Below are positions 4,245 through 52,188 of a stretch of DNA of 64,000 nucleotides, one piece after another. The DNA comes from an uncultured Candidatus Saccharibacteria bacterium (GTDB lineage: Bacteria; Patescibacteriota; Saccharimonadia; Saccharimonadales; Saccharimonadaceae). Position numbers and translations under genes: made by a program. The notes under the pieces are model-generated. The model ran no database searches. It saw only the letters and a program-made list of their open reading frames with translations, and was not told the DNA's origin. Every line of letters starts with the position of its first letter. Position 1 is the first letter of the stretch. The DNA lies in NCBI GenBank assembly GCA_963704675.1, contig OY969928.1, positions 631,539 to 695,538 on the forward strand, in the 5' to 3' direction.

Positions 4245-4337
4245 GTTCTTCCTTATTAATACTTAGGTTTTATACATTGTATCAGAAATAAACGACTGTA
4301 GATATTGTCAAAGTGTTAAAAAGGTTATAATAAAATT

Positions 4338-8404: not shown

Positions 8405-8424
8405 TATAGCATAAGCGTCATAGT

Positions 8425-9282: not shown

Positions 9283-9308
9283 TGCCCGTTTCTTTATTTA
9301 CAAAGATA

Positions 9309-9782: not shown

Positions 9783-9826
9783 ACCACCCTTCCTCTGTTG
9801 TTTGGAATGCTTATGTTTATAATCTG

Positions 9827-9854
9827 ATTATAGTGATATTTGCAGCTTTCGCAA
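9827..9854 (-). promoter_or_regulatory. candidate sigma70-type promoter for pilA
   Basis: On the minus strand the pattern is TTGCGA, a 16-nt spacer, then TATAAT, located upstream of pilA. Confidence 0.4.
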
Positions 9855-9869
9855 GCGCTTCCCATAGCT

Positions 9870-11084: not shown

Positions 11085-11086
11085 GC

Positions 11087-12160: not shown

Positions 12161-12173
12161 TCCCCACCTTTCA

Positions 12174-13949
12174 CTACGCCATATTTGCCGCCACGCGGTT
12201 TACTTCATCAAGTGTCGTAAGACCTTGCAGTGCCTTGAGATATCCGTCGCGACGCATGGTAATCATGCCTTCTTCAACCGCTTTTTTCTGAATCTCAGCA
12301 CTAGTTGCACGCTTTACGATAAGGTTTTGGATGTTTTCAGTTATATCCATTACTTCATAGAGACCCATGCGACCCTTGAAACCCCTGGGGGTAGCTGGCG
12401 TATCCTTCCCCTTCACTAAAGTATAAGCTTTTTGGCCACTGAGCGGCAAGTCTTTATAACCTAAGTCTTCAGAAACTTTGGCGACTGATGCTTTATCTTT
12501 CGGTAATATATCGCCAAGTGTTTCATGGATAGTCTGAGTCTCAAGCGGGTTAGACTGATAGGTTTCGCGTTCCTCGCCTACTCGACGCACTAAACGTTGA
12601 CCAATGACGGTATTGACAGTGCTGGCAATTAAGAAAGGTTCAATGCCCATGTCGAGCAATCGTGGAAGCACTCCAGCCGCTGAGTTAGTATGAAGTGTCG
12701 AGAATACTAGGTGACCCGTTAGAGCGGCTTGCACGGCCAAGTTAGCGGTTTCACGATCACGAATCTCACCCACCATAATAACATTCGGGTCTTGGCGAAG
12801 AATTGAACGAAGACCATTTGCAAATGTCAGCCCAACTTCAGTATTAACCTGAATTTGGTTAACCCCTGATATTTTATATTCAACAGGGTCTTCAAGCGTA
12901 ACAATATTAATTTCATCGCTCTTAATCTCTTGAATGAGCGCATAAAGGCTGGTTGACTTACCAGAACCAGTTGGGCCAGAAGTAAGCACCATGCCATTCG
13001 GCTTGCGGATACCCTTACGAACCATGCGGAGCGCCCGGCCAGCATATCCCATATCTTCAAGCCTAAAGTTGGTGCCAGTCTTATCCAGCAGACGAATAAC
13101 AACTTGCTCACCCCACACCACTGGGCTGATAGCGATACGAAGGTCGATATCGCTCCCGGCAACATGCACTGTAAATTGTCCATCCTGAGGAATGCGATGC
13201 TCGTCAATTTTGAGATTCGAGAGAATTTTTACGCGTGAGATAAGAGCCGGCTCGATACTTTTTGGCAACTTCATAATCTCACGTAGCACGCCATCAACAC
13301 GAGCACGGATCTTCAAGGCATCCTCAAGTGGCTCAATATGAATGTCTGAGGCACGAGAACGGGCGGCGTATTCTAAAATTGTACTGAGTGCTCGGCTAAT
13401 TGGTGAATCTTGCACGATCGTTTTAATATCGGCATTTTGACGATCCTTTTCTTGCTTGGCGCCCTCTTCAGCAGAGCTAATAGCAGCGCTTACTCCCTGC
13501 TGAAGATCAGTATGGTACTGATCGAGTACGTGATTAATACCTTCCTCTGAAGCCATGTAAACTTTCAGCGGTCTTGCGATACGATTCGAAAGGTAATCAA
13601 CCGCCTGAACATTATTAGCATCAAGCATAGCCACTGCAAGACGATTCTGCACTTCACCAAGCGGTACAGCCATAAAGTGTTCTGCCACATCTCTTGGAAG
13701 CAGCCGAAGTACTGACTGATCAATATTCGCCTCAAGCAGATTCACATAGGGTACGCCCGAAACAGATGCCATCAAGCGAGTTAAAGCCTCGTTACCTACT
13801 AGCTTATGTTCAACGAGGTAGCTAATGAGAGGCTTGTTCTCTTTTTCGGCCTCTTTTTTATATTTCGCCAGATCCTCTTTAGTAATGACTCTCTCTTCAA
13901 CTAAGAGAATTTCGAGCTTTTTTTGACTGTCATCAGTTAGCAAACCCAT
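12174..13949 (-). CDS. pilB: type IV pilus assembly ATPase (GspE/PilB family)
   Basis: N-terminal T2SSE_N domain, Walker A GPTGSGKSTS, and Asp/His boxes. Confidence 0.9.
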   Translation of the reverse strand: MGLLTDDSQKKLEILLVEERVITKEDLAKYKKEAEKENKPLISYLVEHKLVGNEALTRLMASVSGVPYVNLLEANIDQSVLRLLPRDVAEHFMAVPLGEVQNRLAVAMLDANNVQAVDYLSNRIARPLKVYMASEEGINHVLDQYHTDLQQGVSAAISSAEEGAKQEKDRQNADIKTIVQDSPISRALSTILEYAARSRASDIHIEPLEDALKIRARVDGVLREIMKLPKSIEPALISRVKILSNLKIDEHRIPQDGQFTVHVAGSDIDLRIAISPVVWGEQVVIRLLDKTGTNFRLEDMGYAGRALRMVRKGIRKPNGMVLTSGPTGSGKSTSLYALIQEIKSDEINIVTLEDPVEYKISGVNQIQVNTEVGLTFANGLRSILRQDPNVIMVGEIRDRETANLAVQAALTGHLVFSTLHTNSAAGVLPRLLDMGIEPFLIASTVNTVIGQRLVRRVGEERETYQSNPLETQTIHETLGDILPKDKASVAKVSEDLGYKDLPLSGQKAYTLVKGKDTPATPRGFKGRMGLYEVMDITENIQNLIVKRATSAEIQKKAVEEGMITMRRDGYLKALQGLTTLDEVNRVAANMA

Positions 13950-13964
13950 ATATGCTAACTCATC

Positions 13965-14207
13965 CTACTGATCAAATGGTTGTTGATTTGCTGGATTACC
14001 AATTTCAATCACTACAGTTGGATCGATTGCTTGGTCGTTAAAAATCTTTTTGCTTGGTTCTGGTAATTCTGCCGAGATTGGCTCAACGACTTCAACTGTT
14101 TGGCGCTGACTACCAGGCTGACCAATTATTGCACTTAATGCAAAATAAGATACTAAAAGTGTCACTGAAACAATCAAAACGATGATTGCTATGTCGTTTT
14201 TTTTCAT
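13965..14207 (-). CDS. small single-pass membrane protein in the pilus operon
   Basis: 80 aa with one TM helix. It sits between the pilO-like gene and pilB. Confidence 0.4.
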   Translation of the reverse strand: MKKNDIAIIVLIVSVTLLVSYFALSAIIGQPGSQRQTVEVVEPISAELPEPSKKIFNDQAIDPTVVIEIGNPANQQPFDQ

Positions 14208-14845
14208 GACTTGACGACCTCTTTCTTTATCTCAACACCTTTAGCTGGTTGCCAGTAAGCCGTTATATCGAGTGCCAAGCGAGTATTCTTATCTGAGCCA
14301 GTCACGTTCATTGTATTAATAGTAATGGGCCGAATAACCCGTTCTAAATCGCGCACAAAGGCTAGAACTTGTTCATAGCTACCGCTTACAGTAATACTCG
14401 CATTGATAGGCTGTGGGCCACTAGCTTCATCAGATGGCTCTACGTCTTCTGCTTGGCTCTCGATCGACACACTTTCAAGCGTTACACCTGAAAGTGGTGT
14501 AATGACCTGCTGAATTGAAGTACCGAATGCACTTGTATCTTTTTCGCGAGGCAAGGCATTCAAAATCTTAGTTGAGCTCACGTTTTTATCGGTTCCTGCG
14601 TCAAGTGGCCCAAAGGCTTCTTTAAGCTTCACGATATTATTTTGATTTTCGGCTAAGGTGCTTGCGGCTTTAGATTTAGCGCTATATACATTGTTGTTAT
14701 ATAAAAATTGCTTATATAAGAATTGAGCCGCAACAAGCAAAATCGAGATTGCAATTGAAGCAATTGCGACCCAGGCAAACATTGTACGATTAGCACTACT
14801 AATTGCTTGGCGTTTCTTAAGACCAGTTGCACGTTTCAGTTCCAT
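14204..14845 (-). CDS. PilO-like pilus assembly protein
   Basis: 213 aa with a single TM followed by coiled coil. It follows pilN with overlapping stop and start. Confidence 0.5.
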   Translation of the reverse strand: MELKRATGLKKRQAISSANRTMFAWVAIASIAISILLVAAQFLYKQFLYNNNVYSAKSKAASTLAENQNNIVKLKEAFGPLDAGTDKNVSSTKILNALPREKDTSAFGTSIQQVITPLSGVTLESVSIESQAEDVEPSDEASGPQPINASITVSGSYEQVLAFVRDLERVIRPITINTMNVTGSDKNTRLALDITAYWQPAKGVEIKKEVVKS

Positions 14846-15576
14846 TAGTCATCTCCTTGGTCGCCTGAAGGATTGGCATTTTCGTCAAATATTGTATTGG
14901 CGCGCGATGGTGCACCAGTAATCGATTGTGTCGTTTGAATATTAGGTATATTTAATTTTACATCTTCAATGTTAGGATCAAATGCAAACTCGTTATAAGT
15001 TGCACGAACAATAAAACCTAACTCCTGCCTGCCTTGATTACGAGTAAGATTTTGGCTTTCAATTACAACACTATCAAACAGTTTGCCCGTCTGTTCTTCA
15101 TCATCTTCTTTATAAGTAAGCTCGGCATTAACAAGTGTGTCTTTAAAAATAGTGAAAGCTTGGAAATTACCAGCCACGCCATTAAACACAATTTCTTTAT
15201 TCTCTTGATCTGTTTGCAAACTTGAAAGCCGAATATTATTGGGTGGTGCTGGGTTTAAAACCTTAAGATATTCAAAAAGCCGTGAATATATGACTTTTTG
15301 ATCGTATAATTCTGGCAGTGCAATGAGTTGATTTTGAATAGTAAGGTATTTATCAATATCTTCTACCGACTTTAGGTCTTCTGTGCGTGTGTCAATTTCA
15401 GTTTGCTTACTAGCAATAAGTAGTGGCTGCCCCGCATAAACAGTCAGGAACAAGAAGACTGTCAAGCCAACTGCGCCTAGTGTGACTAAAATTGAAATAC
15501 CGATGACAGTCGTTTTTGTCCGCTGCGCCTGCAGAAACTCTTTTTTTACATCTGGTAGGAGATTTAACTGAATCAT
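14845..15576 (-). CDS. PilN-like pilus assembly protein
   Basis: N-terminal MIQLNLLPDVKKE (INLLP motif) followed by a TM helix. Confidence 0.6.
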   Translation of the reverse strand: MIQLNLLPDVKKEFLQAQRTKTTVIGISILVTLGAVGLTVFLFLTVYAGQPLLIASKQTEIDTRTEDLKSVEDIDKYLTIQNQLIALPELYDQKVIYSRLFEYLKVLNPAPPNNIRLSSLQTDQENKEIVFNGVAGNFQAFTIFKDTLVNAELTYKEDDEEQTGKLFDSVVIESQNLTRNQGRQELGFIVRATYNEFAFDPNIEDVKLNIPNIQTTQSITGAPSRANTIFDENANPSGDQGDD

Positions 15577-16610
15577 GCCGCTCTCTCCGCCAGACCAACA
15601 GCTACAGCGAATCTAGGTGCTAGCTGAAGCAGCGTTTGTTGATCGCCGCCAGCACGCACTCTTTGCCAGGGATTACCCGCCACTACCTGCAATCCGGTTT
15701 TGGTACTGACAAAATCATTAAATGCTGGCACCGAAACACCGTAACCCGTTAAAACAGCATTTTGAATAGGGAGGCTTGGATATCGTGTTTGAAAGAACTT
15801 TATCGTTTTTGTTAACTCTAAAACAAATTGCTCTAAAGTTGGTTCAAGCGATTTATAAATTTGACCCTCAAGCCTATCAGGATAAAGACCAAACTTCAGA
15901 ATAAATTGCATCGCCTGGTTCTGGTCAATACTAAGGTTTTGCTGAGCTGCTTTTACAAGTGTTTGCATGCCAGTTGGCAACGAACGCACAAGTCGGGGCG
16001 TATCACCAACAACCGCTACAATATCAGTTGAGAAATCTCCAAGATCAACAATTAATAAACCGTTTTGATTATCTTCAGGAGTAAGAGAACGCACAAGCGC
16101 TAATGGATCAGGCTCTAATGCAATAACATTGAGCCCCAAACCTTCAATAAGATCAAGGCGATCTTCGCTAAATTTATTAGCAACACTGGCGAGCAGTACT
16201 TCAATTTTATTCTCGTCTCTCAGTGATTTGCCCAAGACCGCCCAATCTATTTTTGCTTCTTCAATAGACATTGGAATATATTGCTCAGCTTGATATTTAA
16301 TTGTACTGGCTAATTCTTGTGGCGGTACATCTGGTAGATCAACAACTGTTACGAATGTTTTATTCGAAGGAACACCTACCACAACGTTTTTCGAAGTAAT
16401 ACCCGTTTGAGCAATAAGGTTCGTAATAACCTCACCTAATCGTTTTCGATCTTCGGGTGAGTCACTTGTAGCAACTTTCATATCAACAGGAGCTGAACCA
16501 TATCGAGCTAAGACCCAAGATCCTGGTGTACCTTTAAGTTCAATCGCTCGTACAGCGGTTGTGCCGATATCAAGTGCGAAGAAGTCGCCCACCGATTGAA
16601 ATAACTTCAT
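15573..16610 (-). CDS. pilM: type IV pilus assembly ATPase-like protein PilM (actin fold)
   Basis: 345 aa. ALDIGTTAVRAIEL and further actin-like phosphate motifs. It lies upstream of pilN. Confidence 0.8.
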   Translation of the reverse strand: MKLFQSVGDFFALDIGTTAVRAIELKGTPGSWVLARYGSAPVDMKVATSDSPEDRKRLGEVITNLIAQTGITSKNVVVGVPSNKTFVTVVDLPDVPPQELASTIKYQAEQYIPMSIEEAKIDWAVLGKSLRDENKIEVLLASVANKFSEDRLDLIEGLGLNVIALEPDPLALVRSLTPEDNQNGLLIVDLGDFSTDIVAVVGDTPRLVRSLPTGMQTLVKAAQQNLSIDQNQAMQFILKFGLYPDRLEGQIYKSLEPTLEQFVLELTKTIKFFQTRYPSLPIQNAVLTGYGVSVPAFNDFVSTKTGLQVVAGNPWQRVRAGGDQQTLLQLAPRFAVAVGLAERAA

Positions 16611-24125: not shown

Positions 24126-25154
24126 TCAGTTGTTCTGCAACCTGCCACGCCGTCGGTAAATGAACAACAACACACCACCAGCGATCAGCAGCAGGGCAGC
24201 GATGCCCAGCGGCCAGCCAATGCTGGCACCGGTCTCAGCCAGCTCCTCACCACCGGGCGTGTTGTTGCCCACCGGCACGATGCCAGGTGTGGTTGTGCTG
24301 GTGGTCGGAACGGTGGTGTCCGTCGTCGTGGTCGGGACCGTAGTGGTCGTGGTCGGCGGCGAGCACTCCTCGACCACCACCGTAGTGGTGGTTCCATTGT
24401 GCTTGTCACTGACGGTGAGCTTGTACTCACCGGCCGCGAGACCCGAGAAGACGACCTCGCCGCTTGCGTTGCCGGCGATCTCGAGCTTCTTGGGCTCCAG
24501 CCCACCGAGCTTGACCCCGTAGGTGACCTTGTAGTGGTTCGGGTTGGTGATCGTGACGGTCACCTCACCGTCCTTGTCACCCTCGGCGACACAGGCCTTG
24601 ACCTCGGCGCTGACTTCAGGCTTCGCCGGCTTGCACTTCTTGGCATCGTCGAAGCTCCACGGCTTCGGCCCGCTGAAGTAGTGCCACAGCAGGTGCGGCT
24701 CGTCCGGGTCGCCCAGCTTGTCCAGCGTGCCGGGAACGTTCGGCTTGACGCCCTTCTCGACGTACCCGTCGGTTTGCCCGCACACCTTGCGCGGCGGTGC
24801 CGCCACGGTATACTGGCCGGGCTGCTTGATCTCGATGGACTCGCCCGTACCCACCAGGGTCTGGGGCCACATCTCGCCCAGCTTGTCATAGCGCCAGGTC
24901 GCACCGACCGCAATGTACTTGTCGCAGAGCGGCAGCTTGCCGCCGACCGTGACGACCCACGTGAAGGGGTCCTTGGCGACGTAGCTGACGACCTTCTTGA
25001 CGGCCTCGTGGCCTTCGACGCACCTGGTGGTGGTCTTGACCTCGGGACCGCCCGGAACCGGCAATTCGGGTTGCGCCATCGCCGGCGTCCCGGCGAACAC
25101 CATGGCAATCATGGCCGAAGCCACGCCTGCCACAGCAAGAGATCTCTTGATCAT
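24126..25154 (-). CDS. sortase-anchored surface protein (LAETG motif) with Thr-rich linker; high-GC islet
   Basis: Signal peptide MIKRSLAVAGVASAMIAMVFAGTPAMAQP. Thr-rich run PPTTTTTVPTTTTDTTVPTTSTTTPG. C-terminal LAETG followed by a hydrophobic helix and an RRRGR tail. Confidence 0.8.
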   Translation of the reverse strand: MIKRSLAVAGVASAMIAMVFAGTPAMAQPELPVPGGPEVKTTTRCVEGHEAVKKVVSYVAKDPFTWVVTVGGKLPLCDKYIAVGATWRYDKLGEMWPQTLVGTGESIEIKQPGQYTVAAPPRKVCGQTDGYVEKGVKPNVPGTLDKLGDPDEPHLLWHYFSGPKPWSFDDAKKCKPAKPEVSAEVKACVAEGDKDGEVTVTITNPNHYKVTYGVKLGGLEPKKLEIAGNASGEVVFSGLAAGEYKLTVSDKHNGTTTTVVVEECSPPTTTTTVPTTTTDTTVPTTSTTTPGIVPVGNNTPGGEELAETGASIGWPLGIAALLLIAGGVLLFIYRRRGRLQNN

Positions 25155-31712: not shown

Positions 31713-34355
31713 TTGACGTCCCAGCAAGCCCCTGAGTATAGCGGCAAGAAGCGCAAGCTTCTGTTCGCTGCCGTGGGAATAACTGTAATGTTGCTCAGCT
31801 TTGTCGAGCTTTACGTCATGATCAGCATTTTCGGCATGGAAGCGTGGCTAGCCTACGCTATTCAGACAGTGCTGAGCGTGGAGCTCAACTTCGCGGGCAA
31901 CTGGATTCTCACTTTCCGTGACCGGAGACGCGAGAACAGCATCTGGAAGTCTTTACTGCTGTTTCACGCGACGCGAGTGTTCACCATCCCGTTCAACCAG
32001 GTCCTCTTCACCCTCCAGGTGTCGTGGGTACCGGTGTGGGAGTGGACAATCACAGCACCGTGGCCCATCAATCTCCTCGGAGAAAGCGGTCCGATCCTCA
32101 TTGCGCAAGCGGTGTGTATCGTCGCTACGACTGTTCTCAATTACGTCGCCGGTGACAAGCTGGCGTTCGGAGGAAAGTGGGCAAAAAAAGACTCAGCGCC
32201 GACGACATCACCGTTGCCGGCGCCAGAGTTGCCTGACAACCTTCCTTTCGTCAGCATCGTCATACCTGTTAAGAGCTCAGTGCCAACAGATACCCTGGAG
32301 GCACTTTGTCAGCAAACCTACCCCGGAGGCAACTTCGAGGTCATTGTGGTTGGCGACCTGGGCAGTCCAAGCCTTGCATCCATCAGGGAGCTGGACGTTC
32401 CATTCACTCTACAGGTACTCGAAGTTCAGGTTCGTACGCCGCGGCGTGATTCAAACGCCAAACGCGGGCGTGGTCTGAAAAAGGCGATCGGTGACATATT
32501 GGTCGTCATTGACGGTGACGTACTCCCTCGAAAGGAGTGGCTCTCACGAGTCGTCTCGCATCTTACCGTTGGCGGCCACCAGGCAGTCGCCGGCCCGCTC
32601 AGCGGGCACGGTGACTCTTGGTGGAATCGATACATCGACCACAATCGCATAGCCAGCAAAACACCTCGCATGACGACCGCTTATGAGGTCAACGGGTCAA
32701 ATACGCATCGCCGTAAGTTGCCCGTAACGGCTAATTTCGCGTGCCGCCGTGAGGTCTTCGAAAAAGTTGGCGGTCCGGATACTCGCTTCACCAATTCGTA
32801 CGAGGATTATTCGTGGTTCGAAACAATTGTGCAAAATGGCATAACCATTTACTGTGACCCGACGCTGGAAACCCCACGTCATCACCGAAGTGGGCTGTGG
32901 TCACTTCTCGACGAGTACAAGCGTTCAGGCATGGGCTGTGCTGACTTCATCGTCGCCTTCCCTTCCTCGCGCTTCGCTCGGAAACGAATTGTCCAGATCG
33001 TTTGCACAGCCGGTATCAGTATCGGCACCTTGGTGTGTGCATGGCTTAACCCCCTGCTGCTCACCGCGTTCGGTCCGTTCCTGGTACTAATCATGCTAGC
33101 CAACTGGGTCAACACAAAACGCACAGCAAGTCTCGCCTACCCGTTCGTGACCCTACTGCTTGCGAGCAGATTCCTACAAGGAGTATTCTCGCGCTTCCTG
33201 CGACAAGGCTTCCGTCACCCCACGGATTCCTATGTTGTTGAGGAACGATCATCGTTCACTGCCGGAGAAGCAGGCTGGCCATCAGTGAGCGTCGTAGTGC
33301 CCGTCAAGGATCGCCCTGGAACCATCCGCTCATTGGTTAACTCCTTGCTCGCCCAAGAATACAAGGGCGACATAGAGATTATCCTCGTGGGCGATGTGGG
33401 TGATACCACCTGGAATCCCATTCGATCCCTGATCGAGAAAGGGAAGATACGAGCCATAGAGGCTGATGTCGAATCCGCTGGACGTGATGCAAACGCCAAG
33501 CGTAATGTTGGTCTCACGGCTGCTAAGGGCGAGGTACTGATTCTCACCGACAGCGACATGGTTCTACCAAGTCACTGGCTTGAGAAGGGTGTCACGCTCA
33601 TGCGTCGGTCTGGCCACAAGATCGTGGCGGGGTCGATGCGAAGCGTAGAGGCAGCCGTCGAGAGCTCTTCGAGTTTTTGGGGGATGTACACCGATCTCAA
33701 TCCATTCGGAAGTAAAACCCCACGGATGGATCCAGCGTACGTCATTACGCCGCATAACCTCGGAAGGGGGAAAGAAAAGCCACCAATTACCGCGAGTATG
33801 TTCTTCGCACGCGAAGTGCTAGAAGCAACTGGCGGTCTCGATGCAAACTTTACCTCTCCGTACGAGGATTACCCCTTCGCCGATCAGATTATCGACGCAG
33901 GCTACTCGATCCTCTGCACGGATGAGCTGTCCGCCTACCACTACCATCGCGACGGCCTAAAGTCTCTCACCAAAGAGTACCTTCAGGCTGGTATCGGCTG
34001 TGCGGATTACATCCGCACATATCGCACCTCCCGATTTGCTGCAAAGCGTCTCGGGCAAGCGTTCGCGATGACTCTGTTCTTCATGACTGGCATTACGGCA
34101 ATGTGGCTGCTGCCCTTGGCAACAACGGCGGCTAGCTTCATCGGTATCACAGCGCTGGCTGGACTCAGCTGGCAGAAAACGAAACGCCCCATCGCGGCAA
34201 TCTTTCCGATCATCACAACTTACCTCGGCACTGTCTTCTACGTAGGGATAGTGACGGGAGCTGTAAGACGGTTTTGGTCAACCCAACCCGATACCCACAT
34301 CGTTGGAATACGGGAGATAACCGCAACGTTGGCACTGGAGGAAGACCATGTCTAA
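31713..34355 (+). CDS. fusion protein: GtrA-like N-terminal domain plus two tandem (GT2 glycosyltransferase + TM bundle) modules
   Basis: 880 aa with a TTG start. GtrA-like ..VLSVELNFAGNWILTFRDRR. GT2 module 1 is FVSIVIPVKS..VIDGDVLP. GT2 module 2 is VSVVVPVKDR..LTDSDMVLP. Each module is followed by GSKTPRM..YEDY..GCADF/Y..SRFA.KR and TM helices. Confidence 0.7.
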   Translation: MTSQQAPEYSGKKRKLLFAAVGITVMLLSFVELYVMISIFGMEAWLAYAIQTVLSVELNFAGNWILTFRDRRRENSIWKSLLLFHATRVFTIPFNQVLFTLQVSWVPVWEWTITAPWPINLLGESGPILIAQAVCIVATTVLNYVAGDKLAFGGKWAKKDSAPTTSPLPAPELPDNLPFVSIVIPVKSSVPTDTLEALCQQTYPGGNFEVIVVGDLGSPSLASIRELDVPFTLQVLEVQVRTPRRDSNAKRGRGLKKAIGDILVVIDGDVLPRKEWLSRVVSHLTVGGHQAVAGPLSGHGDSWWNRYIDHNRIASKTPRMTTAYEVNGSNTHRRKLPVTANFACRREVFEKVGGPDTRFTNSYEDYSWFETIVQNGITIYCDPTLETPRHHRSGLWSLLDEYKRSGMGCADFIVAFPSSRFARKRIVQIVCTAGISIGTLVCAWLNPLLLTAFGPFLVLIMLANWVNTKRTASLAYPFVTLLLASRFLQGVFSRFLRQGFRHPTDSYVVEERSSFTAGEAGWPSVSVVVPVKDRPGTIRSLVNSLLAQEYKGDIEIILVGDVGDTTWNPIRSLIEKGKIRAIEADVESAGRDANAKRNVGLTAAKGEVLILTDSDMVLPSHWLEKGVTLMRRSGHKIVAGSMRSVEAAVESSSSFWGMYTDLNPFGSKTPRMDPAYVITPHNLGRGKEKPPITASMFFAREVLEATGGLDANFTSPYEDYPFADQIIDAGYSILCTDELSAYHYHRDGLKSLTKEYLQAGIGCADYIRTYRTSRFAAKRLGQAFAMTLFFMTGITAMWLLPLATTAASFIGITALAGLSWQKTKRPIAAIFPIITTYLGTVFYVGIVTGAVRRFWSTQPDTHIVGIREITATLALEEDHV

Positions 34356-35832
34356 TATCAGACACCGCCACGCAGCAACCGTGGTAGGCAGTAAGGCGTT
34401 CTTACTCATCGGAGCAGTCATTGTCGTGCTCGGCGCTGCGCTCCGCTTCATCAACCTGTCCACTTGGCCGGGGGTGGAGTGGGACGAGAACGTCTACCGA
34501 GTAGTCGGTGAGCACGTCGCCCAGGCCGGTGACATCACCGCCAAAACCGAATACCTGGCCGCCGCTGAGCCGTACCTCTATCACCCGCCGTTCCACTTCG
34601 TGGTACTGGGCGGATGGTTCGAGATCTTTGGTTCATCGCTCCTGGCAGCTCGGGCACTTGCCGTTGTGGCATCTCTTGTCATGATGGTGGTGCTCAGTTA
34701 CTTCCTACGCTGGATGATCGGCAACTGGGCACTCCTGGCCGTCGGTCTCATCACCGTCGACGTGTGGATGATCTTCTCGAACCGCGTCTCGTGGATCGAG
34801 AACATCATGATCCCCGTGGGGATCATTGGCCTGTGGCTGTACCGTCGGGGCAGCGAGAAACATTCTTCTCGACTGTTCATCGCGGCCGGGATCGTACTTG
34901 GTCTGGCCGTCGCCTACAAGCACATCGGGCTCATTTTCCCGCTGGCTGTGGGCATCTGTTGGCTGCTCATGCGCAGACTTCACAACCTGCACGTGAAACT
35001 GTTCGCTGCTTTCGCGGCAACAAGTGGCCTCTACGTGGCTGCAATGGCACTGATCTTCGGCAAGGTGTACTTCGAGCAATCCGGCATCCAGTTCTTCCGT
35101 AGCACTGGAAGTCGCGAGTCTCGGGGTGCGCTCAACCTGAGCAACGTCATCACGCCGCTCGTCGATCAGTATGCCGTCTTCGTTGCAACCATGGTACTCG
35201 CGCTGGCGGCCGTGGTCCTGCTCCTGGTGCGCACTGCTCGAATCATCCAGCAGCGTAGCCTGGTCAGCCTGCAGCAGCACACGCTACTGTATGCTTGGGC
35301 AATGGCAGCACTGCTGTTCTTCCTGGTCCTCCAACTCCGTTTTCCCCACTACTTCATGCTCATGCTCATCCCACTGTTCTGCTATCTCGTCGCCGAGATC
35401 AAGTGGTTCAGCGAGAAGAGGCGTGCCAACGGCTCCAACCCCGCAGAGATGCGCAGGGTGATCGCGATCTGCGCCGTACTGGCGCTCGCGTTGAATGTCA
35501 ACGCCTTCATCCAGCGCTTCGTTACTCAAACCAGTGACGATGCGTTGACGGCAACGGCGAACTGGATGTCAGCAAACGCGCCGGCAGACGCCAAGGTTAT
35601 CACCGAAGAATCTGTCGGCTCCACCATCGGACAGCCTTACTGCAAGATCTGGAAGGGTGACGGCTGCGTCGGCGCCGAGTACGTGATTGTCTACACTTCG
35701 CACACGCAGAAGATCCCGGATAACCCCGGTCTTCGCCGCCTGATCGCCTCCGCTGGGTCCCCCGTCTTCACGACGCGGGGCTACAAGGAGATGATTACCG
35801 TGTACAAGCTGCCCTCTCCTGTGAGCGGCTAA
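34348..35832 (+). CDS. polytopic GT-C fold glycosyltransferase (PMT_2 / GT39 / ArnT-like)
   Basis: 494 aa with at least 10 TM segments. The first-loop acidic motif is EWDENVY (DE motif). It has a GGAGGA RBS and an 8-nt overlap with the upstream gene. Confidence 0.55.
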   Translation: MSNIRHRHAATVVGSKAFLLIGAVIVVLGAALRFINLSTWPGVEWDENVYRVVGEHVAQAGDITAKTEYLAAAEPYLYHPPFHFVVLGGWFEIFGSSLLAARALAVVASLVMMVVLSYFLRWMIGNWALLAVGLITVDVWMIFSNRVSWIENIMIPVGIIGLWLYRRGSEKHSSRLFIAAGIVLGLAVAYKHIGLIFPLAVGICWLLMRRLHNLHVKLFAAFAATSGLYVAAMALIFGKVYFEQSGIQFFRSTGSRESRGALNLSNVITPLVDQYAVFVATMVLALAAVVLLLVRTARIIQQRSLVSLQQHTLLYAWAMAALLFFLVLQLRFPHYFMLMLIPLFCYLVAEIKWFSEKRRANGSNPAEMRRVIAICAVLALALNVNAFIQRFVTQTSDDALTATANWMSANAPADAKVITEESVGSTIGQPYCKIWKGDGCVGAEYVIVYTSHTQKIPDNPGLRRLIASAGSPVFTTRGYKEMITVYKLPSPVSG

Positions 35833-35839
35833 CACGATC

Positions 35840-35885
35840 AAGGGCCCCGTGCGCATGCAATCAAATGCAAGCGTTCGGGGCCCTT
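35840..35885 (+). terminator. 10-bp perfect GC hairpin after the GT-C gene
   Basis: aagggccccg ... cggggccctt with a 26-nt loop. Confidence 0.4.
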
Positions 35886-35957
35886 TCAAATTGTATAACT
35901 TTAGCCGTTCTGGATTGGGTGTAATTTTCGAATAAAAAGTCTTCAGAAAAGCGCTCG

Positions 35958-35988
35958 CCTGGGGTCGTGGTTTGTCCACGACCCCAGG
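35958..35988 (-). terminator. 13-bp perfect GC hairpin after the Ppm1-like gene
   Basis: cctggggtcgtgg-tttgt-ccacgaccccagg, 12 nt past the stop codon. Confidence 0.6.
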
Positions 35989-36000
35989 CATTGACACCCT

Positions 36001-36774
36001 TTAGCTACTGGCGACCAGCGCACGCCTAGTAGCAAATCGCAACCGCAGCAATTGCCGCACGAATTTGAAGCCCGTGCGAATGTCGCTCTTTGTGTTACCG
36101 GCCGTTCGTTCACCGAACTGCATCGGTAGTTCCAGAATGCGCAGGCCGCGATGAGCACACAGCAGTTCGACCAAGATCTTGAATCCGTCAGACTTCAGAC
36201 GATCAATGTCAACAGCCGAACGACGAAATACGAAGTAACCGGTCATCGGATCGCTCACTTCGCCAAGCAGACGTGGGAACAATAACTTCGCCGCCAAGTT
36301 CGTGCCACGCGAAACAACGTGCCGCATGAACCCGTTCAACCCATCGGCACTGCCGCCACTGCGATAACGGCTCGTCGTGACTACGTCTACACACTCTGCT
36401 ATCTGGAATAGTAGCCTCGAGAGATAGGCGGGGTGTTGACCATCACCGTCAATGACACAAACGTATTCGTCAGTACTGCACATGCGAATACCGTGTACCA
36501 CCGCACCCGACAAGCCGTCGATGCGCTCCGCCCCCACCCGACGGAACCCCTCGACAACAAAACGCGACGTGCCAAACTCGGCAGCCGCGGTGGTAACAGC
36601 ATCTACCGTGGCAGTATTCTTGCTATCATCGATGACAAGCAGGCGAGTTACACCATCCAGCGGTGCCACCGCTTCTCTCAATAACTTCACCAGCAAGCTG
36701 ATGTTCTGGGCTTCATCGATTGTCGGCGCAATGATTGTACGTGTCGGAGCGTTGTGCTCGCGGACAGCAGACAT
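36001..36774 (-). CDS. polyprenol-phosphate glycosyltransferase (GT2; Ppm1/DPM1/GtrB-like)
   Basis: ..LLVIDDSKN..VCVIDGDGQHPP-like (DGDGQHPA)..SDPMTGYFVFRR..GFKILVELL..ERTAGNTK. The start at Met37 (36774) is preceded by GGAGG. Confidence 0.8.
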   Translation of the reverse strand: MSAVREHNAPTRTIIAPTIDEAQNISLLVKLLREAVAPLDGVTRLLVIDDSKNTATVDAVTTAAAEFGTSRFVVEGFRRVGAERIDGLSGAVVHGIRMCSTDEYVCVIDGDGQHPAYLSRLLFQIAECVDVVTTSRYRSGGSADGLNGFMRHVVSRGTNLAAKLLFPRLLGEVSDPMTGYFVFRRSAVDIDRLKSDGFKILVELLCAHRGLRILELPMQFGERTAGNTKSDIRTGFKFVRQLLRLRFATRRALVASS

Positions 36775-37056
36775 CAATACCTCCAAGAGAGCTATGTACT
36801 CCATGCAGCATCTTGACCGCTTTTGCGGATGTCGTCCTACATTATACATTAAACTAAATATTTTGTAAACTAATATATGCAAAAATTATTTCTAAAAGAC
36901 CAAACATATAACGTATTGATCAGCGCCGCGCAGAAAAAGGCCACCTCTATACTTACAGCCAGTATTACTCACAAGGGGCATGATTAAGCGCAACGACTAT
37001 TACGACAACGAGAGTCATATTTACGCCTCAGATGGCACTAACTGGTGTATCGCTGG

Positions 37057-43770: not shown

Positions 43771-44322
43771 ATGCGGGTTCGATTCTACGTCAGCATGGAC
43801 AAAACCGGCTTCGAGAACGACGAAAACGACCCAGTCTACAAGATCATCCAGCGGATTCGCAACGATTTTGCCGCAAGAGAGGCAAGCTCGCACTACAGCT
43901 CAGAGCCGGTTCGCATCCAGGGCGTCGGCTTCTTCCAGAACGAGGAAGGAACGTATGCCGAGTTCGAGCACTTCTTGTTCGGCCTTCCAACTGCCATTGT
44001 CGACGAGCTCTACTTGAGCGTTCGCCGTGTCGAAATCCATGAGGAGTTTCCGCTGCCAAGCAGTGGCTTCTCGAAAGCGACCTTCACGATGCCCCAGGGG
44101 GACTACGAACACAATGGCGCCGAGGCCATCGTCTACGAAGCTCCAACTGCGGGCGGCGTATCGCGTCAGATTCGCGTTCGGGTAGTCGCTGAGACTCTCG
44201 ACAAGGCTGTCGAACTCTTCAACCTCATTCGCGAGGGCGAGGGCGAGCCGGTTCGCCACTGGATTGATCAGCCGAAGAAGAACGAGCAGAACGACGCGGT
44301 CCCCAGCGAGCAGCCGACATGA
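43771..44322 (+). CDS. orphan hypothetical protein (high-GC islet)
   Basis: 183-aa ORF with an AAGGAG RBS. No motif was recognised. Confidence 0.5.
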   Translation: MRVRFYVSMDKTGFENDENDPVYKIIQRIRNDFAAREASSHYSSEPVRIQGVGFFQNEEGTYAEFEHFLFGLPTAIVDELYLSVRRVEIHEEFPLPSSGFSKATFTMPQGDYEHNGAEAIVYEAPTAGGVSRQIRVRVVAETLDKAVELFNLIREGEGEPVRHWIDQPKKNEQNDAVPSEQPT

Positions 44323-44336
44323 CCACATAGTTTTCC

Positions 44337-44353
44337 GCTGTGCGACAGCGAGA
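44337..44353. repeat. right arm of the 17-bp inverted repeat
   Basis: gctgtgcgacagcgaga. Confidence 0.75.
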
Positions 44354-44360
44354 GCAAAAT

Positions 44361-44399
44361 GGCGGGTGACCTACGGGTTACCCGCCTGCTTTCGTTTTT
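44361..44399 (+). terminator. intrinsic terminator of ORF 43771
   Basis: ggcgggtgacc-tac-gggttacccgcc followed by tgctttcgttttt. Confidence 0.6.
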
Positions 44400-44452
44400 G
44401 ATCCTTTTCTTCTCCTATAGCTTCATGTATGACATGAAAATATAGGGGAATG

Positions 44453-44505
44453 CCCGTGCGTTCTGAAAATGTGAGAACACACGGGCCAGCCGGGGGTTGC
44501 CCGGC
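44453..44505 (-). terminator. two GC hairpins downstream of ORF 44523..45608
   Basis: cccgtgcgttct..agaacacacggg and gccggg-ggtt-gcccggc. Confidence 0.5.
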
Positions 44506-44522
44506 GAACTTGAAATTCCCTG

Positions 44523-45608
44523 TTAGCGAGCAGGAAGGTTGCGCAGTTGCGCCGCCAGAGCTTCGCCTTGGAAACCTTCGGCAGACTTCTGTTCACCTTC
44601 GATACGAATCCACCACTTGAGGTGGTCGTGTGGCAGCGCAGGCAAGAGACTGCCTTCTGCGACAGCGGCGATCAGCGCTCGCTTCCTTGCCTTCGCTTCT
44701 TCCCTGTCCTTCAACTTGGGGTTAAAAGCACTAAGAGGAATGACCACGCAAGCAGCAGCTTGCCGCTGCTCACCCTCGCCCTTGTAAGCGTAGTTGACCT
44801 TCAACTTCGGGTCAGCTTCGTTCTTCGGTGCCACGAGGCCATCAGGATACGGGATCTCCAGGGGTGCCCAGTCAATCTCCTCGTCACTTTCGGAGACAGC
44901 CGCGAAGTCCTCAAGCTTGAGATGCAAGTCAACGTCGCAGAACTCAGCGAGAGTCGTCACCTTGGCGGCCTTGAGTTTTTCTCGGTAGAACTCTTCGAGC
45001 GAAGGAACCTCCACGTACTCACCCGCACCGCGAAGCACAAGCAGCTCCAATTGCTCCAGCACGTCACGGTTGTGCGAGTGCAGACTCCACCCGCCCAACC
45101 TTTCGGCCAGAAGCTCTTCCAGGATGAGCTCCAGCGGATCGCTTATAGTGATGCGTTCAAATTCGGTGCACACCGCCTGTACCGCTTTTTTGATTGAAGC
45201 AAGCACGGTGGCATGTCTACTATACGAGTTATGGAGCCTTTCGTATGCCTTTTGGATTAGCGCATTGAGGTCGGCAGTCGGGAGTATGTTGACAAGTTTG
45301 TCTCGCTCCATCGAAAGCCGCCGCAACTCCTCTCTTGCATGGAGATTAACTAGAGCAGATGAAGCGTGTTCTAGACTAAGAATTCGCTGCCTTGATCCGC
45401 CACGCGTGGTAACATAAATGTCTCCCCGTGTCGCCGCTTTTATCTCAGGCCAAGTCAACAGTCTACCTTCAGCCTCGGGCATTAGCTCGAGGTTCGCAAA
45501 CAGATAGCCCCGACTAGTAGCATCATACTTTACCACACCGCACATCACACCATCAACGATGATGTCTTCGTCGGCGGGCATGGTGATCTGGGGCTCGGTG
45601 AAGCTCAT
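44523..45608 (-). CDS. orphan hypothetical protein (high-GC islet)
   Basis: 361-aa ORF with an AAGAGG RBS. No motif was recognised. It is convergent with ORF 43771. Confidence 0.5.
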   Translation of the reverse strand: MSFTEPQITMPADEDIIVDGVMCGVVKYDATSRGYLFANLELMPEAEGRLLTWPEIKAATRGDIYVTTRGGSRQRILSLEHASSALVNLHAREELRRLSMERDKLVNILPTADLNALIQKAYERLHNSYSRHATVLASIKKAVQAVCTEFERITISDPLELILEELLAERLGGWSLHSHNRDVLEQLELLVLRGAGEYVEVPSLEEFYREKLKAAKVTTLAEFCDVDLHLKLEDFAAVSESDEEIDWAPLEIPYPDGLVAPKNEADPKLKVNYAYKGEGEQRQAAACVVIPLSAFNPKLKDREEAKARKRALIAAVAEGSLLPALPHDHLKWWIRIEGEQKSAEGFQGEALAAQLRNLPAR

Positions 45609-45820: not shown

Positions 45821-47941
45821 TTAATCTTGTTTCGCTTCTTTCATACTAAGGTTGAGGCGACCTTGGTCGTCAATAGCAACTAATTTCACACGGACCTTAT
45901 CGCCTTCTTTCACAACATCGCTCACCTTTTCAACCCGCTGGTCAGACATTTGTGAAATGTGCACTAAGCCGTCGCGGCCAGGCATAATATTCACAAAAGC
46001 GCCGAACTCCATTAGTTTTACCACAATACCATCGTAAACTTTGCCAACTTCGGGCTCAGCCACGATCGCTTGAATCATTTGTATAGCTGCGGTAATGCTC
46101 TTGGTATCAATCGCCGAAACAGTTACCAGGCCGTCATCTTTAATATCAATTTCAGCACCGGTATCGGCGATGATCTTGTTGATCATCTCGCCGCCTTTAC
46201 CAATTACTTCGCGGATTTTCTCAGGCTTAATCATTAGTTTTTCAATACGCGGAGCGTAAGGACTTAGCTGTTCGCGCGGTGCGCTCAAGGTTTCAAGCAT
46301 GTGTTGCAAAATGTGCGCCCGGCCGGTTTTGCCCTGCATTAAGGCTTGACGCAAAATGTCCACCGGTAAACCATGCACCTTCATATCCATTTGGAGCGCT
46401 GTAATGCCCTTTTCAGTGCCAGCAACTTTGAAATCCATATCACCGGCAAAATCTTCGGCATCGGCAATATCACTCATAACATAAGGCGTGTCGCCATCCA
46501 TCATGAGGCCCATAGCAATGCCCGACACTGGAGCTTTCAATGGTACACCAGCATCCATTAGTGCTAAACAGCTCGAGCAGGCCGCAGCCATTGAGGTTGA
46601 GCCATTCTGGCTCATAATCTCAGTGACACTACGAATGGTGTACGGAAAGTCTTCAATTGATGGCAATACATTAAGTAATGCCCGTTCGGCGAGATAACCA
46701 TGACCAATCTCGCGACGACCCGCTGAACCAAGGCGGCGTACTTCGCCCACTGTATAACCAGGCGCGTTGTAATGGTGCATGTAACGCCGTTCGAAGTCGT
46801 TTTGCTCCATGGTATCTACCATCTGCGCATAGCTTAAAGGTGCGAGCGTCACAACGTTCATGCCCTGCGTAACTCCACGGGTGAATAAGCTTGAACCGTG
46901 CGTGCGTGGCAAAATACCAACTTCGCTTGAAAGCGGGCGAATTTCATCAAGCTTGCGGCCATCGGGGCGCAGGCCCTTTTCGACAATACCGCGGCGCACG
47001 TCTTTATGTAGCGCCGTAGTAAAAGCTTCGTCATATTCGCCGCGCAGCAGCTCGTATTCTTCACCAACACTCTCAGCCATGACTTCATGGAATTCACCAC
47101 GCAAAATCGTGATCATTTCATTGCGCTCTGGGTACGGACGTCGCAGATCTTCACTGAGTTTGTCGGCCATCCAAGCGTCAACAGATGTTTGAATCTCTTC
47201 ATTGGGCAATACAAGTTCATATTCAAGAGCTTCGACACCGATTTTTTCAGTCAGTTCTTTTTGCACGGCAATAGCTGGCTGGAAGGTTTCATGCGCCCAA
47301 GCAAGTGCATCAGCTACCACATCTTCGGCAACTTCTTTAGCACCAGCCTCAACCATAGTGATACCACTCTCAATACCAGCAACTACTAAATCAAGCTCAC
47401 TTTGTTCAATTTCTTCAGGGCTGGCAAACGCTTTGAACTCGCCATTTACTCGCGAAATGCGAAGCCCAGCTACTGGGCCGTCAAATGGCGCACCCGTTAA
47501 TGTCAACGCGGCGCTCGCAGCGATCATCGCTACCATATCTGGCCGGAAGTTCGGGTCCATTGAAAGCACTGTTGCGACCACCTGCACTTCTTGACGATAG
47601 CCTTTTGGAAAGAGTGGTCGAATTGGCCGGTCAATAATACGACCAATAAGAATCGCTTCGTCACTCGGGCGACCTTCACGTTTAATAAAACGTGAGCCAC
47701 TAATCTTACCGGCTGCATAAAACTTTTCTTCGTAATCAACACTGAGCGGGAAGTAATCCATACCACTAATTGGCTTGTTACCAACCATAGCCGTTCCAAG
47801 CACAACAGTGTCGCCATAGCGCACCAATACGCTCGCGGTAGTGCGAAAACCAACTCGCCCAACTTCTAGGGTAAGCGGCTTGCCGCATAACTCGACTTCA
47901 ACTTTAATAATATCTTTACCGAATGGGTTAATGGTGCCCAT
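45821..47941 (-). CDS. pnp: polynucleotide phosphorylase
   Basis: 706 aa with two RNase PH domains, KH and S1 (..GKVYDGIVVKLMEFGAFVNI..). Confidence 0.95.
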   Translation of the reverse strand: MGTINPFGKDIIKVEVELCGKPLTLEVGRVGFRTTASVLVRYGDTVVLGTAMVGNKPISGMDYFPLSVDYEEKFYAAGKISGSRFIKREGRPSDEAILIGRIIDRPIRPLFPKGYRQEVQVVATVLSMDPNFRPDMVAMIAASAALTLTGAPFDGPVAGLRISRVNGEFKAFASPEEIEQSELDLVVAGIESGITMVEAGAKEVAEDVVADALAWAHETFQPAIAVQKELTEKIGVEALEYELVLPNEEIQTSVDAWMADKLSEDLRRPYPERNEMITILRGEFHEVMAESVGEEYELLRGEYDEAFTTALHKDVRRGIVEKGLRPDGRKLDEIRPLSSEVGILPRTHGSSLFTRGVTQGMNVVTLAPLSYAQMVDTMEQNDFERRYMHHYNAPGYTVGEVRRLGSAGRREIGHGYLAERALLNVLPSIEDFPYTIRSVTEIMSQNGSTSMAAACSSCLALMDAGVPLKAPVSGIAMGLMMDGDTPYVMSDIADAEDFAGDMDFKVAGTEKGITALQMDMKVHGLPVDILRQALMQGKTGRAHILQHMLETLSAPREQLSPYAPRIEKLMIKPEKIREVIGKGGEMINKIIADTGAEIDIKDDGLVTVSAIDTKSITAAIQMIQAIVAEPEVGKVYDGIVVKLMEFGAFVNIMPGRDGLVHISQMSDQRVEKVSDVVKEGDKVRVKLVAIDDQGRLNLSMKEAKQD

Positions 47942-48082
47942 ATTTACTCCTTATTACTCGTTTATGAGCGGATAAGTAACGGGTATAACGCTTCTATTGA
48001 AAAACGTTATGTCCACCACTTACACCACTCCGTGAGCCAACGCCATTATAACGCATTTTTGAGCATCGTGATAGTGAAGGTA

Positions 48083-48111
48083 TTGACACTTTTAATCTAA
48101 CATTATATTAT
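48083..48111 (+). promoter_or_regulatory. near-consensus promoter of the WhiB-like gene
   Basis: TTGACA (48083-88), a 17-nt spacer, then TATTAT (48106-11), in the context ggtaTTGACa. Confidence 0.5.
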
Positions 48112-48159
48112 ATCTACCTGGTACACCTCAACCGGTCCCAAACCTCTGGAGGTAATGAC

Positions 48160-48414
48160 ATGGACTGGCGTTACAACAGTGCCTGCCGCGACGAGGACCC
48201 GGATCTGTTCTTTCCCGTGGGAACGAGCGGTCCGGCCATTTTGCAGACGGCGCAGGCCAAGTCGGTCTGCCACCGCTGCACCGTCGCGTCAGACTGCCTG
48301 ACCTGGGCGCTGCAGAGCGGCCAGGACAGCGGCGTCTGGGGCGGCATGAGTGAGGACGAGCGTCGCGCGCTCAAGCGGCGCAACGCGCGCGTTCGCACTC
48401 GCAGCAACGTCTGA
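48160..48414 (+). CDS. whiB: WhiB-like (Wbl) [4Fe-4S] transcription factor
   Basis: 84 aa. Cys pattern C9-x27-C37-x2-C40-x5-C46, GVWGG turn (SGVWGGMSEDER), basic tail RRNARVRTRSNV, and a GGAGG RBS. Confidence 0.85.
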   Translation: MDWRYNSACRDEDPDLFFPVGTSGPAILQTAQAKSVCHRCTVASDCLTWALQSGQDSGVWGGMSEDERRALKRRNARVRTRSNV

Positions 48415-48471
48415 TCACTGGGTGCGACCCGCTTGGCACACGCCACGCTTTCGCACCCATCAGTACCACCC

Positions 48472-48507
48472 GGGTTCGGAAGCTCCACTACTGGAGCTTC
48501 CGAACCC
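48472..48507 (+). terminator. 16-bp perfect hairpin terminator after whiB
   Basis: gggttcggaagctcca-ctac-tggagcttccgaaccc followed by ttttcgatttt. Confidence 0.7.
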
Positions 48508-48586
48508 TTTTCGATTTTAAACGAAAGTATCTTAATAAAAAATAACCCCCGAAACAGGAGCTATTCTTAGAAGATTACTTTAGTTA

Positions 48587-48853
48587 TTACTTACGCAGGC
48601 CAAGCTTTGCCACTGTCGCCTTGTATGTTTCAAAATCGGTTTTTTCGAGGTAGCGTAAAAGCTTCCTACGACGACCGACCATTTGTAGTAACCCACGGCG
48701 AGCCATAAAGTCATGCTTATTAACTTTTAAGTGTTCGGTAATTTCTTTAATGCGGGCTGTTAAAACAGCAATTTGCACCTCAGGAGAACCGACATCACCT
48801 TCATGGCGCTGGTTATCTGCAATAACCTTTGTTTTTACATCTTGTGCAATCAT
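48587..48853 (-). CDS. rpsO: 30S ribosomal protein S15
   Basis: ..[51 protein letters not shown].. Confidence 0.9.
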
Positions 48854-51279: not shown

Positions 51280-52188
51280 CTACTCATCAGCGAAAAGCGC
51301 TTCGCCGCGCCGGTTGGTTAGCCACAAGGGGCGTGGTCCAACGCGAATCTTGCCCGGGCGCACGTTGTGAAGGCTGAACTCGGGATAATCCTGCCGTTCT
51401 TGGCCGTACAGGCCCGAGAGGCAGAGCCGGTTCTTACGAGCAAAACTCCGGCCGGGGTCGCGGCCACAGTTCGCCGCCATGTGCAGCTGCTGGGGGTCCC
51501 ACAGCGTCGTATCTTCGGGAATGATGACGGTGTGATTGGCCGGATTGAAGTGTTCCCGGCCGATACCTGTCGCCCCGAATGTGCCGATGACATCGCCGGC
51601 CCGCACTGGAATACCCAGCCGACGGAGCTCGTCTTGAGTTTTCATGACACCCGATGGATGCCAATCGAACTCATCCGTTTGAACGGCTGGCAAGTACGGA
51701 ATATCTTCCGCAACCGAGCCCAGGTGAATCAGCTGTGTGGTCAACTTACCGAAACCTGGCACATCAACGTGTTCGTGCTGGATTTCGACAAATAGCCCGG
51801 CACCGCCCCCATAGACAACATCATTCTCAATTCGAAGTGTCAAGAACTGGTAGCTGCACCAGGCGATGCCATCTGCCGGCGCCAGGATCGGTACCCCCAG
51901 CTCCAGACCTTCAAAGTCGAGCGCCTGGTGCGAGTTGTCGTCCCAGCCAATGAGCGGCATCTCGTCGGCAGCATCGAAGAAGCCATTCGTGACAGTCAGC
52001 TTGGAAGCGTCACACTTGCGGAATGGCTGCTTCAAGCATGGCGGTGGCACCACCCGCTCACGCGGTGTTGGGTCGAGTCGCGGACGATGATGCTGGTTTG
52101 ATGCGGCCATTGCCTCGTCAACGCTCACCGAGCCAACGGCTCCGACCGCCACAGCGCCCATGAGGACGCTCCTTCTAGAAGCACACAT
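51280..52188 (-). CDS. Tat-signal secreted M23/LytM-like metallopeptidase (high-GC islet)
   Basis: Twin-arginine N-terminus MCASRRSVLMGAVAVGA..AMAA. M23-like blocks are SHQALDF (HxxxD), GVPILAPADGIA, GLFVEIQH, TQLIHLGS and VRAGDVIGTFGATG. The terminal HxH is not obvious. Confidence 0.55.
   Translation of the reverse strand: MCASRRSVLMGAVAVGAVGSVSVDEAMAASNQHHRPRLDPTPRERVVPPPCLKQPFRKCDASKLTVTNGFFDAADEMPLIGWDDNSHQALDFEGLELGVPILAPADGIAWCSYQFLTLRIENDVVYGGGAGLFVEIQHEHVDVPGFGKLTTQLIHLGSVAEDIPYLPAVQTDEFDWHPSGVMKTQDELRRLGIPVRAGDVIGTFGATGIGREHFNPANHTVIIPEDTTLWDPQQLHMAANCGRDPGRSFARKNRLCLSGLYGQERQDYPEFSLHNVRPGKIRVGPRPLWLTNRRGEALFADE

Follow-up and report, generated by a model that had tools for sequence, protein, structure and literature searches.

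The Wbl family of WhiB-like proteins was called exclusive to Actinobacteria and actinophages in a 2026 paper. A whiB gene in the spacer between rpsO and pnp of a Saccharibacteria genome therefore raises the question of whether the gene is genuine, how it came to be there, and whether a sigma-docking Fe-S sensor works with the RNA polymerase of Patescibacteria or is used against the host. The locus lies in a 64-kb stretch of DNA, referred to below as the window.

The open reading frame at 48160-48414 (+) encodes a protein of 84 amino acids (MDWRYNSACRDEDPDLFFPVGTSGPAILQTAQAKSVCHRCTVASDCLTWALQSGQDSGVWGGMSEDERRALKRRNARVRTRSNV). A first, sequence-only reading of the window had described it as an 84-aa ORF with the Wbl cysteine pattern, a GVWGG turn and a basic tail, and all of these features were found where it had placed them. 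The translation has cysteines at positions 9, 37, 40 and 46 in the expected pattern C-Xn-C-X2-C-X5-C, a turn of the form G[V/I]WGG at positions 58-62 (G58-V-W-G-G62), and a basic C-terminal tail after this turn (ERRALKRRNARVRTRSNV; also given as KRRNARVRTRSNV). The same reading had proposed a search with the Pfam Whib model PF02467 as a check. When this search was run, the whole 65-position model (1-65) was covered with a score of 90.6 bits (E = 9.3e-26), far above the cutoff of 23.6 bits, and the protein can be considered a genuine Wbl. A 105-aa ORF runs antisense to whiB at 48171-48488 (-). As the family match is carried by the whiB frame, the antisense ORF is most likely a shadow ORF, of a kind common in GC-rich DNA.

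Comparison with Wbl proteins of known structure identified the class. The PDB entries for WhiB1 were matched with E = 7.5e-41 (5OAY) and E = 1.2e-38 (6ONO). The score was 141 bits for M. tuberculosis WhiB1, but only 59 bits for WhiB (WhiB2-class), 53 for WhiB3, 42 for WhiB4 and 34 for WhiB7. Since no other Wbl class exceeded 59 bits, the protein is, by sequence, a WhiB1 orthologue. Every sequence criterion that we applied places it in the Wbl family and in the WhiB1 class. It departs from the usual description of the family in its taxonomic position, a restriction of the literature that is descriptive and not biochemical, and in lacking the canonical whiB1 locus context.

The alignment to WhiB1 was then inspected at the positions with assigned roles in cluster binding or in contact with sigma region 4 (PMC6954389). 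The four cysteines of the protein align with those of M. tuberculosis WhiB1, and W3, F17, F18, W49, V59 and W60 are all present. The aromatic patch involved in sigma region 4 binding (W3, F17, F18 and W60 in WhiB1; PMC6954389, PMC13013590) is thus retained with all four residues. The single change within the listed contact set is E15D, and mutation at the E15 position was without effect (PMC6954389). As judged from the alignment, every residue known for holding the [4Fe-4S] cluster and for contacting sigma region 4 is retained.

The neighbors of the gene belong to a different kind of bacterium. On the minus strand, the cassette is flanked by rpsO, encoding ribosomal protein S15 (48587-48853; Pfam Ribosomal_S15, E = 2.4e-35; GC3 0.37), and by pnp, encoding polynucleotide phosphorylase (45821-47941; two Pfam RNase_PH domains, KH and S1). 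The whiB cassette occupies the spacer on the strand opposite to both genes, so that the antisense placement between rpsO and pnp was borne out by Pfam for both neighbors. The PNPase of the window matched 80 loci at 72-79% amino acid identity, nearly all of which carry the name Saccharibacteria or Saccharimonadales. By these relatives, the host genome is that of a Saccharimonadales (TM7) bacterium, and the suspicion of a non-actinobacterial setting that is unusual for a Wbl was correct. Immediately upstream of pnp, a native leader at 47965-48022 (-) contains a block of 14-21 nt that is conserved in many Saccharibacteria and lies within an imperfect inverted repeat. This leader marks the native side of the insertion. 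The structure may be autoregulatory for pnp; the block did not match any Rfam family.

The sequence-only reading had also stated that the gene splits the normally co-transcribed rpsO-pnp pair. The insert does lie between the two genes, but the spacer is variable in the phylum. In 71 Saccharibacteria loci its length varied from 125 to 5110 bp (median 851 bp), and it was 350 bp or shorter in only 24 of them, indicating that the pair is often interrupted in Saccharibacteria. None of the 80 other Saccharibacteria loci had a Wbl gene at a distance of up to 6 kb from pnp, suggesting that the trait is narrow. One further Wbl gene at rpsO-pnp, that of locus L175, is described below.

The insert is a compact cassette of 390 bp that is bordered by native sequence at either end. 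Its composition differs sharply from that of the surrounding DNA, in agreement with the GC-rich block noted before: the GC content is 67.5% in the coding sequence and 64.5% in the block 48119-48510, against 29-37% in the adjacent spacer and 42-48% in the 2-kb flanks. The GC3 value is 0.85 for whiB, compared to 0.37 for rpsO and 0.45 for pnp. The individual promoter, ribosome binding site and hairpin claimed for the gene were all confirmed. A predicted sigma-70-type promoter at 48083-48111 (+) consists of TTGACA (48083-48088), a 17-nt spacing and TATTAT (48106-48111). It matches 11 of 12 positions and is the best among 13 promoter-like sites in 6.5 kb, although the number of such sites in this region is not above that in shuffled sequences (13 vs 8.8 +/- 3.3). 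The GC-rich DNA begins at 48119, with a 5' UTR (48119-48159, +) that contains the block TGGTACACC, discussed below, and a Shine-Dalgarno sequence GGAGG at 48148-48152, 7 nt before the whiB ATG. Downstream of the gene, a first stem-loop in the 3' UTR (48419-48459, +) has perfect arms of 9 bp. It is followed by an intrinsic terminator (48472-48518, +) with a perfect 16-bp stem (48472-48507), a 4-nt loop and a T-run (TTTTCGATTTT). This terminator is stronger than any other terminator-like site of the region. The folding energy of the 3' region is -60.7 kcal/mol (z = -10.6 against shuffles). No known RNA family was matched in the rpsO-pnp spacer in an Rfam search, and flanking direct repeats or microhomology, which could have served as an insertion signature, were not present at the cassette.

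The key comparison was provided by L175, a locus in assembly GCA_036378955.1, named Candidatus Saccharimonadales (contig DASUVM010000007.1). Its protein HEX6462393.1, annotated as [quoted passage not shown], falls into the same 90% cluster as the window WhiB. The two loci are syntenic over 20 kb (RNase J, UDG, pnp, whiB (+), rpsO (-), truB, PIG-L), and whiB occupies the same rpsO-pnp place on the same strand. The PNPases are 91% identical at the amino acid level and 81% at the nucleotide level, and the whiB genes are 85.7% identical at the nucleotide level. In a whiB tree, the two copies form a clade with 97.5-99% bootstrap support, next to an Actinophytocola-like clade. The homology extends to the non-coding flanks: the -35 box TTGACA is identical, the TGGTACACC block and GGAGG are conserved, and the -10 box is TAGACT in L175 and TATTAT in the window, both at 17-nt spacing. 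The terminator hairpin is homologous as well, with compensatory changes of stem pairs (GGGTTCGG/CCGAACCC vs GGATCCGG/CCGGATCC), whereas the first 3'-UTR stem-loop is absent from L175. The shared site, the homologous non-coding flanks and the whiB clade together indicate one ancestral insertion that was inherited by two species. L175 additionally has two low-GC ORFs (139 and 150 aa) between whiB and pnp (8979-9895, -) that the window does not have. They had no match in PHROGs and no Pfam hit is on record for them; their presence further supports the variability of the rpsO-pnp spacer.

These data bear on the possibility that the gene is an assembly chimera, or a contamination from co-assembled actinobacterial reads, as the sequence-only reading had allowed. 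The GC step is indeed sharp, and Actinophytocola MAGs occur in the same data series as the sister MAG (DASUVO and DASUVM, respectively). Against this stand the tidy cassette with native sequence on both sides, flanks that match no actinobacterial locus, and an independently assembled second species with a copy that is 14% diverged in nucleotide sequence, yet found at the same site with homologous flanks. Furthermore, the exact WhiB protein, the exact LAETG surface protein described below and two other window proteins are found on one NCBI/ENA contig of 1,264,584 bp. We therefore consider a chimeric origin extremely improbable.

The two copies also allowed us to ask about selection. For whiB, the comparison gave dN = 0.054, dS = 0.67 and an omega of 0.08; for pnp, dS was 1.41. 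The low omega shows, at the level of the sequences, that whiB is under strong purifying selection, and speaks against the earlier suggestion that the gene could be a relic. One could still regard it as a neutral passenger, host DNA that entered the epibiont, for instance by natural competence, and that is functionless there and has not yet decayed. The un-ameliorated composition of the window copy, the narrow distribution (none of the 80 relatives) and type IV pilus genes in the window, which are compatible with DNA uptake, would all fit such an account. It does not explain well, however, why the gene was retained with an intact reading frame and an omega of 0.08 in two species whose pnp genes have reached a dS of about 1.4, why -35 box, Shine-Dalgarno sequence and terminator are conserved, with compensatory changes in the stem, and why a second, independent acquisition (see below) is intact as well. 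In our view, it is quite unlikely that the gene is functionless.

The closest relatives of the window gene are chromosomal WhiB1 genes of Pseudonocardiaceae, mainly Actinophytocola-like, with 90-93% amino acid and 83-86% nucleotide identity. The best 120 homologues and all actinobacterial named members of the 90% cluster belong to this family, and the genera among the best protein matches include Actinophytocola, Actinokineospora, Amycolatopsis and others. M. tuberculosis WhiB1 (Rv3219) has the same length of 84 aa and is about 77% identical. The M. tuberculosis and Pseudonocardiaceae proteins share the four cysteines, the aromatic patch, the GVWGG turn and the basic tail with the window protein, but the window gene resides in a Patescibacteria (Saccharimonadales) genome. 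There, it is also without the neighborhood of the native genes: the closest actinobacterial whiB genes are embedded in a canonical DAGK-whiB1-pdtaS-rshA-sigH (anti-sigma-sigma) arrangement, which is missing from the window together with the native upstream region. Nucleotide similarity to the closest actinobacterial loci does not extend beyond the coding sequence, and the 5' UTR and terminator of the cassette had no match in these loci, including L176 and L177. Taken together, the comparisons show a foreign origin of whiB, with a Pseudonocardiaceae, Actinophytocola-like donor, as far as sequences can tell. Probably, this donor was also the host organism of the epibionts. The result amounts to a host prediction, Pseudonocardiaceae of Actinophytocola type, for an uncultured clade of soil Saccharimonadales. 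One of the closest WhiB1 genes is from an Actinophytocola MAG (L081, GCA_036378875.1, DASUVO) with an accession series adjacent to that of L175 (GCA_036378955.1, DASUVM). The two MAGs could stem from a common study or sample and might represent a host and its epibiont.

In place of the native upstream region, the window gene lies behind its predicted consensus sigma-70-type promoter in AT-rich DNA. A palindrome-like element GTGA-N6-TGACA at 48074-48088 (+; GTGAAGGTATTGACA) overlaps this promoter, its right half being the -35 box. The element is the sole match to GTGANNNNNNTSACA in the 64-kb window and is located 71 nt upstream of the whiB start codon. In actinobacterial whiB1 loci, the sequence GTGAaagcatTCACA, which was taken as their CRP site, is found 67 nt upstream of the start codon. 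Compared to this native site, the window thus has only a CRP-like sequence at an equivalent offset, and the element is without conservation in L175. It may be a relic of the CRP site or regulatory region of the donor, with the right half now serving as the -35 box.

A phage- or plasmid-borne Wbl gene, brought in by a mobile element, was another origin to be considered, and a phage-derived effector had been among the options raised earlier. Wbl genes are common in actinophages (PMC8612146), the PHROG WhiB families match the window protein at about 89 bits, and one close homologue (L176) is located outside the canonical whiB1 locus. At the DNA level, however, no phage sequence matched the cassette and plasmid matches reached at most 79%. 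Integrase, transposase or phage genes do not adjoin the cassette, direct repeats do not flank it, and the closest relatives are chromosomal WhiB1 orthologues in the canonical locus. Delivery by a mobile element thus appears very improbable, if somewhat less so than an assembly artefact.

A second case was found in a separate Saccharimonadia lineage, represented by a contig family of 53% GC with at least 24 contigs from JGI, ENA and Logan (L117/L165-170). In this lineage, a WhiB1 protein of 92 aa is encoded between a PrcB_C-domain gene and a CAP-domain gene, and UvrB shares 83-88% identity with proteins assigned by name to Candidatus Saccharimonadia or Saccharibacteria. In the tree, the whiB gene falls with Amycolatopsis-type WhiB1, at the end of a long branch and with a support of 53.5%. 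Its GC3 of 0.68 is between that of donors (0.80-0.86) and that of its neighbor genes (0.60-0.61), and in comparison with an Amycolatopsis-type gene (L171), pS was 0.78, which is saturated, and pN 0.06. The gene has its own Shine-Dalgarno sequence and terminator and an intact reading frame; the C-terminal tail of the protein has diverged and is less basic. Judging from these values, it looks like an older, partly ameliorated, but still intact acquisition. The sequences thus point to two independent acquisitions of WhiB1 in Saccharimonadia, at different loci and from different donors. Cluster mates of the L117 protein with a length of 90 aa (P0122 and others) were also considered as Saccharimonadia copies, but turned out to be Amycolatopsis genes with an upstream start codon, and ten more 90% clusters did not contain any further WhiB named Saccharimonadales. 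With two acquisitions, one of them conserved under selection, a Wbl is evidently able to endure in a phylum whose genomes are reduced and very different.

The best reading of these sequence data is, in our opinion, a host-to-epibiont transfer followed by domestication and expression. We propose that an ancestor shared by two or more soil Saccharimonadales species received a WhiB1-class gene from Pseudonocardiaceae, and that the gene was inserted into the rpsO-pnp spacer, a variable site, in opposite orientation to both neighbors. Its transcription would start at the gene's own sigma-70-type promoter and yield a monocistronic mRNA. In the cytoplasm, the protein would receive a [4Fe-4S] cluster, dock with its aromatic patch (W3, F17, F18, W60) on the C-terminal His-Pro loop of the epibiont's own primary sigma factor, and adjust transcription to NO, O2 or redox state in the manner of mycobacterial WhiB1. 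The E. coli sigma-70 factor also ends with ...RHPSRS.... Region 4 is highly conserved among bacterial primary sigma factors (PMC13013590). Horizontal transfer and retention of a WhiB1 gene in Saccharimonadales we regard as close to certain. For an action on the sigma factor of the epibiont itself our preference is modest, and the complete statement, a Pseudonocardiaceae gene transferred to an epibiont, retained there and acting on the epibiont's own sigma factor, appears moderately probable to us. A sigma-70 probe for rpoD found no match in the 64-kb window or in the 177 loci that were retrieved, and Fe-S assembly genes were not found within the window.

One result does not sit easily with a long residence in the epibiont genome. 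Three-point synonymous distances assigned a length of about 0.68 to the L175 whiB branch, but a value near zero to the window branch, while the PNPases of the two genomes have evolved at equal rates. The window copy has remained un-ameliorated with donor-level GC3. A branch length near zero is odd for a long-resident gene. It is possible that the window copy was kept frozen by gene conversion from host DNA, that the cassette spread laterally between related epibionts at a later time, or that the estimate is noise from only 84 codons. With repeated gene conversion, it would be understandable that the window copy has not moved towards the base composition of the epibiont although the insertion is older than a speciation event.

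A related idea is that the epibiont WhiB1 mimics the essential regulator of the host, either acting in the host on its principal sigma factor, or retaining its host-like sequence through recurrent gene conversion with host DNA taken up by the epibiont. As an effector, the near-copy of WhiB1 would be delivered into the actinomycete, compete there for the principal sigma factor and skew the stress and growth programme of the host, like actinophage WhiB-like proteins. The protein is still 90-93% identical to host-type WhiB1 and the window copy retains host-like codon usage (GC3 0.85). In the literature, Saccharibacteria are described as obligate epibionts of Actinobacteria. [quoted passage not shown] On the other hand, the 84-aa protein has no predicted signal peptide or recognisable secretion tag, no secretion system adjoins whiB, and a protein is poorly suited for export if its cluster is O2-labile. 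Moreover, the diverged, less basic tail of the older L117 copy suggests adaptation away from the donor form. Mimicry of the host regulator, in either version, is thus rather unlikely in our estimate, though less so than a gene without function.

The situation can be compared with known systems. Actinobacteriophage WhiB-like proteins (for example PHROG 14459 and 472) are likewise host-derived Wbl proteins in a parasite of Actinobacteria, and hijacking of sigma-dependent transcription is a possible role in common. In our case, however, the carrier is a cellular epibiont and not a virus, and the sequence is a near-orthologue of chromosomal WhiB1, unlike the divergent phage Wbl clades. Transfers from host to epibiont have been described in Saccharibacteria, for example for the arginine deiminase system (PMC8764695), likewise a foreign accessory gene kept in reduced genomes, but the cargo in the window is a predicted sigma-binding Fe-S transcription factor and not a metabolic pathway. 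Our literature search did not find a paper on a Wbl in Saccharibacteria or Patescibacteria; the papers found dealt with host WhiB genes or mentioned the subject in passing. As the NCBI annotation already names the sister MAG protein (L175) WhiB, the data on the Wbl of the sister genome are public, but, as far as we could find, discussed in no paper. The gene adds a new member to a known family, in an unexpected phylum.

Several other regions of the window deserve mention. A gene at 24126-25154 (-; 64% GC, GC3 0.85) encodes a secreted protein of 342 aa with an LAETG sortase anchor of the kind that is usual in Actinobacteria. The gene shows as little amelioration as whiB, the C-terminal anchor of its product resembles that of Actinophytocola LPXTG proteins, and the only full-length homologue of the protein (48% amino acid identity) is on the sister-MAG contig that carries whiB. 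A GC-rich glycosyltransferase island at 31713-36882 (55-59% GC, GC3 0.58-0.76) contains genes for an 880-aa GtrA-GT2-GT2 fusion, a PMT_2 mannosyltransferase-like membrane protein and a GT2 glycosyltransferase, and probably represents a further foreign block of greater age. Another three GC-rich ORFs (183, 361 and 302 aa; GC3 0.60-0.73) at 43771-45608 and 51280-52188 had no Pfam or NCBIfam match; the 302-aa product has a Tat-like N-terminus, and L175 has GC-rich ORFs at comparable positions.

The type IV pilus cluster of the window (7063-16610, -) looks complete, with PilM, PilO, two T2SSE ATPases, PilC, a prepilin peptidase and pilins. Such clusters are a common feature of Saccharibacteria genomes, and this one is plausible as a route for host attachment and DNA uptake. 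At 3578-5243, a tRNA-Arg(CCT) gene adjoins a gene for a tyrosine recombinase of the Phage_integrase family, which may be XerC/D or mark the edge of an integrated element.
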